Below are positions 35,144-63,655 of a stretch of 64,000 bases of DNA, piece after piece. Every line of letters begins with the position of its first letter. Within the stretch, counting starts at the first letter, position 1. The notes under the pieces are model-generated. The model ran no database searches and was not told the DNA's origin. It worked only from the letters and a program-made list of their open reading frames with translations. This DNA is from Escherichia coli (GTDB taxonomy: Bacteria; Pseudomonadota; Gammaproteobacteria; Enterobacterales; Enterobacteriaceae): the NCBI RefSeq assembly GCF_002854065.1, contig NZ_CP024147.1; one strand, given 5' to 3'. The position numbers and the translations under genes were made by a program.

Positions 35144-35473
35144 TTAACTCTCGTCCAGCACACTAAACATCCCGTTCCGCATCCCCTTAACCACCTGTTT
35201 AACCTGATAAAGTTCCTCCCGCAGCTCCTGCACCTCGTCACTGTCAGCGATAATGGTCAGGCACCCCTCCGAAATCTTCACCGTGACACCCCGCCCGGTA
35301 TCAAATCCGGCCTCTTTCAGCCAGTCGCCCTTAAGGTTCAGGCAGGGGTGTCGTGAGTAGTACGTGGTCATGTAGGTTTTGCTGTTTATGTGGCGGGCTC
35401 TGACATAGCCGACTTTATAGCGGCGCTGTGTTTTGGAAATGGTGACTTCTGGCGTAATATCGTGTTCAGCCAT
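35144..35473 (-). CDS. SymE-like toxin (AbrB/SpoVT-fold, type I toxin-antitoxin family)
   Basis: 109-aa ORF; segment YYSRHPCLNLKGDWLKEAGFDTGRGVTVKISEGCLTI resembles the SymE signature as I recall it (xLKGxWLxxAGFxTG...EGC). Confidence 0.6.
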   Translation of the reverse strand: MAEHDITPEVTISKTQRRYKVGYVRARHINSKTYMTTYYSRHPCLNLKGDWLKEAGFDTGRGVTVKISEGCLTIIADSDEVQELREELYQVKQVVKGMRNGMFSVLDES

Positions 35474-37554: not shown

Positions 37555-37660
37555 GCCGGATGCGGCGTGAACGCCTTATCCAGCCTACAAATTTGTGCAA
37601 ATTCAATAAATTGCAGGAAATACGTAGGCCTGATAAGACGCGTCAAGCGTCGCATCAGGC
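37555..37660. repeat. REP elements between phr and dtpD
   Basis: GCCGGATGCGGCGTGAACGCCTTATCCAGCCTAC and GTAGGCCTGATAAGACGCGTCAAGCGTCGCATCAGGC. Confidence 0.8.
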
Positions 37661-51068: not shown

Positions 51069-51776
51069 TTAAGGTCTCCTTAGCGCCTTATTGCGTAAGA
51101 CTGCCGGAACTTAAATTTGCCTTCGCACATCAACCTGGCTTTACCCGTTTGTTATTTGGCTCGCCGCTCTGTGAAAGAGGGGAAAACCTGGGTACAGAGC
51201 TCTGGGCGCTTGCAGGTAAAGGATCCATTGATGACGAATAAATGGCGAATCAAGTACTTAGCAATCCGAATTATTAAACTTGTCTACCACTAATAACTGT
51301 CCCGAATGAATTGGTCAATACTTCCACACTGTTACATAAGTTAATCTTAGGTGAAATACCGACTTCATAACTTTTACGCATTATATGCTTTTCCTGGTAA
51401 TGTTTGTAACAACTTTGTTGAATGATTGTCAAATTAGATGATTAAAAATTAAATAAATGTTGTTATCGTGACCTGGATCACTGTTCAGGATAAAACCCGA
51501 CAAACTATATGTAGGTTAATTGTAATGATTTTGTGAACAGCCTATACTGCCGCCAGGTCTCCGGAACACCCTGCAATCCCGAGCCACCCAGCGTTGTAAC
51601 GTGTCGTTTTCGCATCTGGAAGCAGTGTTTTGCATGACGCGCAGTTATAGAAAGGACGCTGTCTGACCCGCAAGCAGACCGGAGGAAGGAAATCCCGACG
51701 TCTCCAGGTAACAGAAAGTTAACCTCTGTGCCCGTAGTCCCCAGGGAATAATAAGAACAGCATGTGGGCGTTATTC
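51069..51776. promoter_or_regulatory. gltA-sdhC divergent promoter/control region
   Basis: 708-bp AT-rich intergenic region between divergent gltA and sdhC; established as an ArcA/CRP/Fnr-controlled region; individual sites not mapped here. Confidence 0.5.
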
Positions 51777-55008: not shown

Positions 55009-55126
55009 GTAGGCCTGATAAGACGCGCAAGCGTCGCATCAGGCAACCAGTGCCGGATGCGGCGTGAACGCCTTATCCGGCCTACAAGTCATTACCCGTA
55101 GGCCTGATAAGCGCAGCGCATCAGGC
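55009..55126. repeat. REP/BIME cluster between sdhB and sucA
   Basis: Three REP units read directly. Confidence 0.8.
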
Positions 55127-59360: not shown

Positions 59361-59529
59361 TGTAGACCGGATAAGACATTATCGCCTTCTCCGGCAATTG
59401 AAGCCTGATGCGACGCTGAACGCGTCTTATCAGGCCTACGGGAAGCACCGATGTAGGTCGGATAAGGCGCTCGCGCCGCATCCGACAAGCGATGCCAGAT
59501 GCGACGCTTGCGCGTCTTATCAGGCCTAC
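59361..59529. repeat. REP/BIME cluster between sucB and sucC
   Basis: Three to four REP units read directly. Confidence 0.8.
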
Positions 59530-59614: not shown

Positions 59615-60781
59615 ATGAACTTACATGAATATCAGGCAAAACAACTTTTTGCCCGCTATGGCTTACCAGCACCGGTGGGTTATGCCTGTACTACTCCGCG
59701 CGAAGCAGAAGAAGCCGCTTCAAAAATCGGTGCCGGTCCGTGGGTAGTGAAATGTCAGGTTCACGCTGGTGGCCGCGGTAAAGCGGGCGGTGTGAAAGTT
59801 GTAAACAGTAAAGAAGACATCCGTGCTTTTGCAGAAAACTGGCTGGGCAAGCGTCTGGTAACGTATCAAACAGATGCCAATGGCCAACCGGTTAACCAGA
59901 TTCTGGTTGAAGCGGCGACCGATATCGCTAAAGAGCTGTATCTCGGTGCCGTTGTTGACCGTAGTTCACGTCGCGTGGTCTTTATGGCCTCCACCGAAGG
60001 CGGCGTGGAAATCGAAAAAGTGGCGGAAGAAACTCCGCACCTGATCCATAAAGTTGCGCTTGATCCGCTGACTGGCCCGATGCCGTATCAAGGACGCGAG
60101 CTGGCGTTCAAACTGGGTCTGGAAGGTAAACTGGTTCAGCAGTTCACCAAAATCTTCATGGGCCTGGCGACCATTTTCCTGGAGCGCGACCTGGCGCTGA
60201 TCGAAATCAACCCGCTGGTTATTACCAAACAGGGCGATCTGGTCTGCCTCGACGGCAAACTGGGCGCTGATGGCAACGCACTGTTCCGCCAGCCTGATCT
60301 GCGCGAAATGCGCGACCAGTCGCAGGAAGATCCGCGTGAAGCACAGGCTGCACAGTGGGAACTGAACTACGTTGCGCTGGACGGTAACATCGGTTGTATG
60401 GTTAACGGCGCAGGTCTGGCGATGGGTACGATGGACATCGTTAAACTGCACGGCGGAGAACCGGCTAACTTCCTGGACGTTGGCGGCGGCGCAACCAAAG
60501 AACGTGTAACCGAAGCGTTCAAAATCATCCTCTCTGACGACAAAGTGAAAGCCGTTCTGGTTAACATCTTCGGCGGTATCGTTCGTTGCGATCTGATCGC
60601 TGACGGTATCATCGGCGCGGTAGCGGAAGTGGGTGTTAACGTACCGGTCGTGGTACGTCTGGAAGGTAACAACGCCGAACTCGGCGCGAAGAAACTGGCT
60701 GACAGCGGCCTGAATATTATTGCAGCAAAAGGTCTGACGGATGCAGCTCAGCAGGTTGTTGCCGCAGTGGAGGGGAAATAA
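59615..60781 (+). CDS. sucC: succinyl-CoA synthetase beta subunit
   Basis: 388-aa [23 protein letters not shown]... Confidence 0.96.
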
Positions 60782-61650
60782 TGTCCATTTTAATTGATAA
60801 AAACACCAAGGTTATCTGCCAGGGCTTTACCGGTAGCCAGGGGACTTTCCACTCTGAACAGGCCATTGCATACGGCACCAAAATGGTTGGTGGCGTAACT
60901 CCAGGTAAAGGCGGTACTACCCACCTCGGCCTGCCGGTGTTCAACACCGTGCGTGAAGCTGTTGCTGCTACTGGCGCTACCGCTTCTGTTATCTACGTAC
61001 CAGCACCGTTCTGCAAAGACTCCATTCTGGAAGCCATCGACGCAGGCATCAAACTGATTATCACCATCACTGAAGGCATCCCGACGCTGGATATGCTGAC
61101 CGTGAAAGTGAAGCTGGATGAAGCAGGCGTTCGTATGATCGGCCCGAACTGCCCAGGCGTTATCACTCCGGGTGAATGCAAAATCGGTATCCAGCCTGGT
61201 CACATTCACAAACCGGGTAAAGTGGGTATCGTTTCCCGTTCCGGTACACTGACCTATGAAGCGGTTAAACAGACCACGGATTACGGTTTCGGTCAGTCGA
61301 CCTGTGTCGGTATCGGCGGTGACCCGATCCCTGGCTCTAACTTTATCGACATTCTCGAAATGTTCGAAAAAGATCCGCAGACCGAAGCGATCGTGATGAT
61401 CGGTGAGATCGGCGGTAGCGCTGAAGAAGAAGCAGCTGCGTACATCAAAGAGCACGTTACCAAGCCAGTTGTGGGTTACATCGCTGGTGTGACTGCGCCG
61501 AAAGGCAAACGTATGGGCCACGCGGGTGCCATCATTGCCGGTGGGAAAGGGACTGCGGATGAGAAATTCGCTGCTCTGGAAGCCGCAGGCGTGAAAACCG
61601 TTCGCAGCCTGGCGGATATCGGTGAAGCACTGAAAACTGTTCTGAAATAA
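60781..61650 (+). CDS. sucD: succinyl-CoA synthetase alpha subunit
   Basis: 289-aa [27 protein letters not shown]...; start overlaps the sucC stop. Confidence 0.96.
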
Positions 61651-61749
61651 ATATCTGTAATAAGAAATAGCCCTCGCCGCTTCCCTCTACAGGAATGGCG
61701 AAGGGCTGTCGGTTTCGACATGGTTGGCCATCGTATGATGGCCTTTTTT
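61651..61749 (+). ncRNA. sdhX: SdhX (RybD) small RNA derived from the sucD 3'UTR
   Basis: About 100 nt immediately after the sucD stop, with a GC stem (agccctcgcc...ggcgaagggct) and a terminal hairpin ggccatc-gtat-gatggcc plus T6; placement matches the known 3'UTR-derived sRNA; 5' end not determinable here. Confidence 0.6.
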
Positions 61750-62316
61750 ATGCCTTAAACGGTTAACCACGGTCGAAATCTGACTGCAGGCTTGACTGCA
61801 TGACCACAGCCACTGTGGATTGCCGCAACCGACCGCAAGCCACGAATAAGAACGACGGCGAATTTCGAATCGTTACCTGATGCACTGGCTTCCCAGCGTT
61901 TGACCGTAGCGTTAAGTAAATCAACAAAAGCGATGTTCACCGCTTTTCGTCAAGTCGTGCCATTTGTCAGCCAGGATCGGGTCTTTACCCCGGATATTGC
62001 AGCATCGCAAAAATTCTTAGAGGGATATGCTATAAATCAAAAATAAAATCTTTGTTGATTGTTTATCATAATATCCACAGATATGATAAATGATATCAAT
62101 TTAATAATTTTCACTTAATGTGATTCCGGATAATTCGAAAGGCGCTGTGCTTTTCGGATTATTATTATCTGATTAAGATATTTGTCACGCCAGGCTTACT
62201 GGTTTATAAATGTCAATCATGATTCTTATAAATTATTTATTGCTGCTTTGGTTACCATTACTTCGTAATAAGTAATGTATTTTTGATTGTTTAAACTATT
62301 TTTAAGGGACGGCATT

Positions 62317-62416
62317 ATGCGAGGGAAAATACCTAAAACGGAACTGCTGGTGACTTTTGAGGTCGTCGCACGTCATGAAAGTTATACCAGAGCGGCAGAG
62401 GAGTTAGCGTTAACCC
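62317..62416 (+). pseudogene. 5' fragment (33 codons) of a LysR-type transcriptional regulator, truncated by IS1
   Basis: ATG preceded by AAGGGA; MRGKIPKTELLVTFEVVARHESYTRAAEELALT is a LysR-family HTH start; reading frame runs straight into the IS1 terminal repeat at 62417. Confidence 0.7.
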
Positions 62417-62431
62417 GGTAATGACTCCAAC

Positions 62432-62935
62432 TTATTGATAGTGTTTTATGTTCAGATAATGCCCGATGACTTTGTCATGCAGCTCCACCGATTTTGAGAA
62501 CGACAGCGACTTCCGTCCCAGCCGTGCCAGGTGCTGCCTCAGATTCAGGTTATGCCGCTCAATTCGCTGCGTATATCGCTTGCTGATTACGTGCAGCTTT
62601 CCCTTCAGGCGGGATTCATACAGCGGCCAGCCATCCGTCATCCATATCACCACGTCAAAGGGTGACAGCAGGCTCATAAGACGCCCCAGCGTCGCCATAG
62701 TGCGTTCACCGAATACGTGCGCAACAACCGTCTTCCGGAGCCTGTCATACGCGTAAAACAGCCAGCGCTGGCGCGATTTAGCCCCGACGTATCCCCACTG
62801 TTCGTCCATTTCCGCGCAGACGATGACGTCACTGCCCGGCTGTATGCGCGAGGTTACCGACTGCGGCCTGAGTTTTTTAAATGGCGGAAAATCGTGTTGA
62901 GGCCAACGCCCATAATGCGGGCGGTTGCCCGGCAT
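62432..62935 (-). CDS. insB: IS1 InsB (expressed as the InsAB' transposase by -1 frameshift)
   Basis: 167-aa ORF; slippery TTTAAAAAAC on the coding strand (T-run 62873-62878 on plus). Confidence 0.93.
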
Positions 62936-63129
62936 CCAACGCCATTCATGGCCATATCAATGATTTTCTGGTGCGTACCGGGTTGAGAAGCGGTGTAAGT
63001 GAACTGCAGTTGCCATGTTTTACGGCAGTGAGAGCAGAGATAGCGCTGATGTCCGGCAGTGCTTTTGCCGTTACGCACCACCCCGTCAGTAGCTGAACAG
63101 GAGGGACAGCTGATAGAAACAGAAGCCAC
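62854..63129 (-). CDS. insA: IS1 InsA
   Basis: 91-aa [46 protein letters not shown]... Confidence 0.95.
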
Positions 63130-63184
63130 TGGAGCACCTCAAAAACACCATCATACACTAAATCAGTAAGTTGGCAGCATCACC

Positions 63185-63655
63185 CACCACGATTTGCAAA
63201 ATTTCATTGTGCGCCATGGCATCGACAATGCTGGTGGGGAAAGCATGCGAAATAAATACTTTTAGCGTAAAGGGTTCTGCCGCGACCACTCCGGTGGTTT
63301 CGGCACCGTGTGCAACAAAATTAATTCCTGTACCTGGCATGAAGAAATTTACCGTTATCAAGCCTAAGGCAATTGACAGCAATGAGGCGCAAATAAATAA
63401 AAAGAGTGTTTTAGAAAAAATACGACCAAGGGCTTTGGCATCGCCCATTTTAGCAATACCTACCACCAGGGTAGAGACCACTAACGGAGCGATAATCATT
63501 TTTATCAGTCGTAAGAAAATCGTCGTGAATATCGATATTTCTTGCGCATAGAGTTTTGCGGTTTCCGGTGAAGCAGTGTTATTGAGCACTACGCCGATAA
63601 TCATTCCAAGTACCAGCGCCAAAAGAATCATCGTGGTTAAACTTATTTTCTTCAT
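63185..63655 (-). pseudogene. 5' part (~157 codons) of a sodium:dicarboxylate symporter (DAACS) family transporter gene, 3' end replaced by IS1
   Basis: MKKISLTTMILLALVLGMIIGVVLNN...IFLRLIKMIIAPLVVSTLVVGIAKMGD resembles the conserved N-terminus of GltP/GltT/DctA-type carriers; GGAGG RBS; frame runs into the IS1 end. Confidence 0.7.

Follow-up and report, generated by a model that had tools for sequence, protein, structure and literature searches.

A copy of the small RNA SdhX (RybD) identical to that of K-12 follows sucD at the edge of a variable, IS1-truncated island in Escherichia coli

The closest described counterparts of the element analysed here are the SdhX RNAs of Salmonella and E. 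coli K-12. Salmonella SdhX, known as an 87-nt SdhX1 and a 38-nt SdhX2, shares with our element the locus, the seed UUCGACAUGGU, a terminator-based architecture and the founding target ackA (Miyakoshi et al. 2019, PMC6393394), whereas its 5′ variable part is a different one, a U stands where E. coli and our sequence have G62, the katG-pairing stretch is absent, and the targets are fumB and yfbV rather than fdoG and katG (PMC6393394). The 38-nt SdhX2 is functional, and a U-to-G change distinguishes its processing site in E. coli (PMC6393394). The E. coli RNA uses G62 to repress fdoG and a non-conserved upstream stretch to repress katG, as studied with a C34G mutant and a 14-bp duplex, and trans regulation of ackA, fdoG and katG was demonstrated for the K-12 RNA by compensatory mutations (PMC6393394). 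A looser likeness, of kind and not of membership, exists to CpxQ, SroC, NarS and MalH, in which an operon terminator likewise forms the Hfq module, the seed lies just upstream of it and RNase E releases the RNA (PMC9438474), although the loci, seeds and targets are all different.

We analysed a stretch of 64,000 nt from E. coli (NZ_CP024147.1, assembly GCF_002854065.1), hereafter the window, in which the operon upstream of the element is complete, with sdhC at 51762, followed by sdhD, sdhA, sdhB, sucA (55306), sucB (58122), sucC (59615) and sucD (60781). The final gene of this sdhCDAB-sucABCD operon, sucD, encodes the succinyl-CoA synthetase alpha subunit and was placed at 60781-61650 (+) by the open reading frame list and by the sucD annotation in matching E. 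coli genomes; its TAA stop codon occupies 61648-61650. The element begins at 61651, directly 3′ of this stop codon and on the same strand, and its full 99 nt (61651-61749, +) read AUAUCUGUAAUAAGAAAUAGCCCUCGCCGCUUCCCUCUACAGGAAUGGCGAAGGGCUGUCGGUUUCGACAUGGUUGGCCAUCGUAUGAUGGCCUUUUUU. In a pairwise alignment, all 99 positions were equal to nt 1-99 of K-12 MG1655 sdhX (b4764, NC_000913.3 765050-765148), which is annotated in that genome as an ncRNA of 101 nt (765050-765150) directly after sucD, with the convergent mngR 2 nt further on. The K-12 annotation reaches 2 nt past our element, to the equivalent of 61751, and the first mismatch falls on 61750, the base after the U-tract, which is A in the window and G in K-12 (nt 100 of the 101-nt annotation); beyond it, the two sequences are unrelated. 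The original prediction that SdhX (RybD) follows sucD is borne out by this identity, by the same position and by the published seed and E. coli-specific determinants, which are intact, and the alignment against K-12 sdhX that it had proposed as a check showed no divergence in the seed. We are highly confident that the element is SdhX (RybD) in its long form of ~101 nt, that is, the 3′ UTR of the sdhCDAB-sucABCD mRNA released as an Hfq-dependent sRNA. The earlier label of a known element also fits an exact copy of a characterised K-12 gene: the sRNA is already known, the window carries its K-12 allele, and nothing in the element itself is new.

Folding of 61651-61749 gave a minimum free energy of −40.8 kcal/mol (z = −4.39); among 200 dinucleotide shuffles, none folded as well. 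The RNA fold agreed with the hairpins and Rho-independent terminator that had been expected in the roughly 100 nt after sucD. Hairpin 1 (61669-61707, +), which makes up the variable 5′ part of SdhX, has an imperfect 15-bp stem and a 7-nt loop; it is followed by a weak 4-bp hairpin (61708-61719, +) and then by the terminator (61726-61749, +), with a 7-bp GC-rich stem GGCCAUC/GAUGGCC (61726-61732/61737-61743), the loop GUAU and six uridines (U6) at 61744-61749. This terminator was also called by a consensus scan, which reported 4 sites in the region against 2.7 ± 1.4 expected and is therefore not above chance by itself; the decisive evidence for the element is the alignment with K-12 sdhX and not the terminator scan. 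The A that replaces G after the U-tract is unlikely to alter termination efficiency. A minus-strand open reading frame of 81 aa (61476-61721), antisense to sucD and sdhX, was unsupported and was taken as spurious.

The SdhX seed UUCGACAUGGU, as given in PMC6393394, lies just upstream of the terminator at 61714-61724 (+), with its core CGACAU at 61716-61721. With numbering from the first base after sucD, both E. coli-specific determinants were also recovered, G62 for fdoG at 61712 and C34 at 61684. G62 sits at the SdhX2 processing site, where the surrounding GG/UUUCG is the same as in K-12, and the minimal 38-nt SdhX2 equivalent, consisting of seed and terminator, would occupy 61712-61749 (+), its 5′ end being set by that length back from the 3′ end. 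C34 is part of the E. coli/Shigella-specific katG-pairing stretch GCUUCCCUCUACAG (SdhX nt 29-42, 61679-61692, +), as defined by the duplex with K-12 katG. The three target genes lie outside the window, and all duplexes were computed with K-12 target sequences. For ackA, SdhX nt 64-73 are predicted to pair with −2 to +8 (CCAUGUCGAG) over 10 bp (ΔG −15.3 kcal/mol), covering the start codon and the second (UCG) codon; of 1000 shuffled seeds, 13 gave a duplex as good. The predicted fdoG duplex joins SdhX nt 62-71 to −22 to −13, also over 10 bp, and sets G62 opposite C−13, which is the published compensatory pair, while SdhX nt 29-42 would pair with the Shine-Dalgarno region of K-12 katG (CUGUAGAGGGGAGC) over 14 bp, including one G-U. 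Unrestricted duplexes of full-length SdhX yielded long, unrealistic pairings and were set aside because they ignore intramolecular structure, and seed-restricted duplexes were used instead. In 5422 of 5424 E. coli genomes, the ackA initiation region (−60 to +60) shows at least 99% identity; given a region so nearly invariant in the species, the ackA target is almost certainly present in the window's own genome.

What is known of expression, processing and Hfq binding was carried over to this strain from experiments in K-12 and Salmonella. The sdhCDAB-sucABCD transcript of ~10 kb would end at the SdhX terminator, and RNase E would cut it twice, close to the sucD stop codon and close to 61712, to yield species of ~101 nt and ~38 nt (PMC6393394, PMC9438474). 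Hfq would bind the internal and terminal uridines, with the terminator and its U-tail as the binding module (PMC6393394). The seed would then cover the ackA start codon and lower acetate kinase synthesis while pta would not be repressed, and, following the literature, this repression of ackA would couple acetate and acetyl-phosphate metabolism to expression of the TCA-cycle operon. Despite the replaced and IS1-deleted DNA next door, the link that SdhX provides from this operon to acetate kinase, catalase and formate dehydrogenase is expected to persist.

Across the species, 5425 of the 5426 complete E. coli genomes contain the sdhX 99-mer, 4069 records with at least 99% identity and 1350 with 95-99%. 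An alignment of eight sdhX alleles from four downstream contexts located all differences at nt 35-37 (the loop of hairpin 1), nt 45-46 (its 3′ arm) and nt 83 (the first base of the terminator loop), and the seed, the terminator stem and the U-tract were constant in all eight. Since the variable loop nt 35-37 fall inside the katG-pairing stretch, regulation of katG by SdhX might differ between E. coli lineages. In window coordinates, the variable sites are 61685-61687, 61695-61696 and 61733, by comparison with the loci L003, L004 and L010-L013. In one further genome, E. coli FDAARGOS_944 (NZ_CP065613.1), an IS1 is inserted within the sdhX seed (L005 4064-4850) with a 9-bp target duplication (TCGACATGG) and parts the seed and terminator from the sucD 3′ UTR; FDAARGOS_944 may be a naturally occurring mutant of sdhX, or else its seed and terminator may be expressed by read-through from IS1.

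Immediately downstream of sdhX, the core genome gives way to a variable island. The boundary was placed at 61750-61757, from the first K-12 mismatch to the point where BLAST extension to K-12-type genomes halts (61753-61757), and in multiple alignments the mngR, LysR-island, rtcB and TPR types were alignable through U6 and diverged 0-5 nt later. The view that conservation stops at the terminator thus holds for all sampled downstream types. Conservation ends there because sdhX is the last core element before the variable segment, which in K-12 reaches cydA. After sdhX, at least five alternative contents were encountered. The K-12 order is mngR, mngA, mngB, cydA, whereas the order typified by O157:H7 PV15-279 is a LysR-family regulator, cobO, a class I fumarate hydratase, a dicarboxylate/amino-acid:cation symporter, a DUF4387 gene and an AtuA-family gene, and sequence of this island was found downstream in about 835-994 of 5426 E. 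coli genomes (about 15-18%). WL297 has an rtcB-family gene between sdhX and the LysR-type island, strain 20 has a hut operon beside the island (this locus stops short of sucD, so that its adjacency to sdhX is presumed), and strain 5132 has a TPR pseudogene alone before cydA. In the window, mngR is replaced as the neighbour by rtcB-like and hutH-like relics, with an IS1-cut LysR-type island beyond them. The earlier description of the downstream locus as rearranged is correct insofar as it differs from mngR-mngA-mngB of K-12; it is better described as an alternative accessory island with an IS1-mediated deletion of 4,021 bp. The position of sdhX beside a variable region is genuine but not surprising, and has little import beyond annotation.

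The best matches to the window among E. coli genomes were CUWW06 and 100416, both at 100.0% identity over 24.9 kb, which for CUWW06 includes the operon; CUWW06 carries IS1 elsewhere and has the island intact. PV15-279 has no IS1 at the locus and differs from the window at 3 of 1,417 positions, and an initial assignment of the window to O157:H7 was given up. By comparison with the PV15-279 locus (L001), window 61000-62416 corresponds to L001 5400-6816 and 63185-64000 to L001 10838-11653, and the intervening 4,021 bp of the island are replaced by an IS1 of 768 bp (62417-63184, −), which was recognised from the sequence, its insA/insB reading frames and the IS1 annotations under its matches. The flanks CGTTAACCC and CACCACGAT differ, so that no target-site duplication is found at this IS1, and, judging from the junctions, an IS1 standing in place of 4,021 bp without such a duplication is the product of an IS1-mediated deletion. 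With this segment, cobO and the fumarase gene were lost, as were most of the LysR gene and the symporter gene's 3′ part. On the left side, the first 100 nt of the LysR-family regulator gene remain (62317-62416, +; reading frame MRGKIPKTELLVTFEVVARHESYTRAAEELALT), up to the end of collinearity at 62416, and the gene is intact, at 906 nt, in the equivalent place in PV15-279 and CUWW06. On the right side, the open reading frame list and collinearity with PV15-279 place the 5′ part of the dicarboxylate/amino acid:cation (DAACS) symporter gene at 63185-63655 (−), its 3′ part having been lost in the IS1 event. None of the 5,426 complete E. coli genomes has the exact junction between LysR and IS1, and two records reached a coverage of at least 80% only by the joining of two pieces with a different spacing.

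Between sdhX and the LysR remnant, the spacer contains two gene relics. Next to sdhX, blastn against WL297, where the gene is intact, identified an rtcB-family 3′ end (61748-61849, −), convergent, frameshifted and internally deleted, which is no part of sdhX but abuts or overlaps its U-tract: 61640-61792 matched L003 4040-4191 (96%) and 61793-61849 matched L003 4365-4421 (91%). The WL297 RtcB-family coding sequence ends at L003 4148, within the U-tract, with the C-terminus PAVRFRPWLTFKA before the stop codon, compared with PAVRFRPWLTV in the window. The second relic (61853-62046, +) is the 3′ end of a HAL/PAL/TAL (hutH-like) ammonia-lyase gene, identified by blastn against E. coli strain 20, where the gene is intact and where 61853-61913 matched L006 4597-4657 (87%) and 61909-62416 matched L006 5001-5508 (89%); the hutH-like coding sequence of strain 20 ends at L006 5138, equivalent to window 62046. 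The presence of both relics in the spacer suggests that the island was once larger and has since decayed. The damage to the island by IS1 does not touch sdhX.

Two other accounts of the segment itself were weighed. It might serve the operon here as 3′ UTR and terminator alone, guarding the end of the sucD mRNA and blocking read-through with no role in trans. The terminator is indeed genuine by both RNA fold and consensus scan, and removing the entire 3′ UTR reduces SucD, so there is a cis role (PMC6393394); cis and trans roles can coexist, however, and the sequence is that of the K-12 RNA with its proven trans regulation of three targets. The constancy of the seed from allele to allele, next to loop positions that do vary, and the species-wide conservation of the ackA site also speak against a purely local function, which we regard as extremely improbable. 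It is equally hard to credit that SdhX is transcribed from a promoter of its own inside sucD rather than processed from the operon mRNA. A weak sigma-70-like match (9/12) does lie within sucD at 61205-61232, but it is ~420 nt upstream of sdhX, and the scan returned 5 promoter-like sites against 5.2 by chance; moreover, neither a transcription start site nor a conserved promoter was reported before SdhX, and its biogenesis is RNase E-dependent (PMC6393394).

The left edge of the island is most simply explained by sdhX being the last core element on which purifying selection acts. A different explanation would be that the hairpin at 61726-61743 is a bidirectional terminator shared with convergent genes, such that every island variant abuts it. 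The stop codon of K-12 mngR lies 4 nt past U6, that of the WL297 rtcB-family gene overlaps the final two T of the U-tract, and the minus strand has an A-tract before the hairpin, all of which would suit such a role. The minus strand after the hairpin reads AACCAUGUCGAAACC, however, and without a U-tract there the hairpin does not qualify as a canonical intrinsic terminator on that strand; it was also not called in the minus-strand scan, and the window's convergent gene is merely a relic. We consider bidirectional termination unlikely. More doubtful still, and given only a slight chance, is the idea that the terminator hairpin, or the need for an intact SdhX, sets or promotes the recombination breakpoint at the fixed left edge of this hotspot; against it stands the reading in which the breakpoint is just the last base under purifying selection.

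The element is easily overlooked: sdhX is near-universal in E. coli, yet it is left unannotated by the NCBI pipeline in nearly all RefSeq genomes of the species and has no Rfam model. RefSeq annotation under the listed sdhX matches was 'none', and K-12 was the only fetched record in which sdhX is annotated. With Rfam 15, no SdhX/RybD family was found in the whole window at the gathering score or in 61400-62500 at E ≤ 10, where the only matches were at chance level (isrD at 17.3 bits, covering the terminator only, tmRNA and mir-889). The exact K-12 sequence was equally unmatched, and the miss most likely reflects the lack of an SdhX model; it was not counted against the assignment. Elsewhere in the window, Rfam returned isrA at 35274-35402 (+, 112.9 bits) and ES036/CssrF at 37589-37631 (+, 75.1 bits), both unrelated to sdhX, and, within the operon, two intergenic matches to the REP-element-derived naRNA4, one between sdhB and sucA (55012-55082, −, 88.4 bits) and one between sucB and sucC (59456-59526, +, 72.6 bits).
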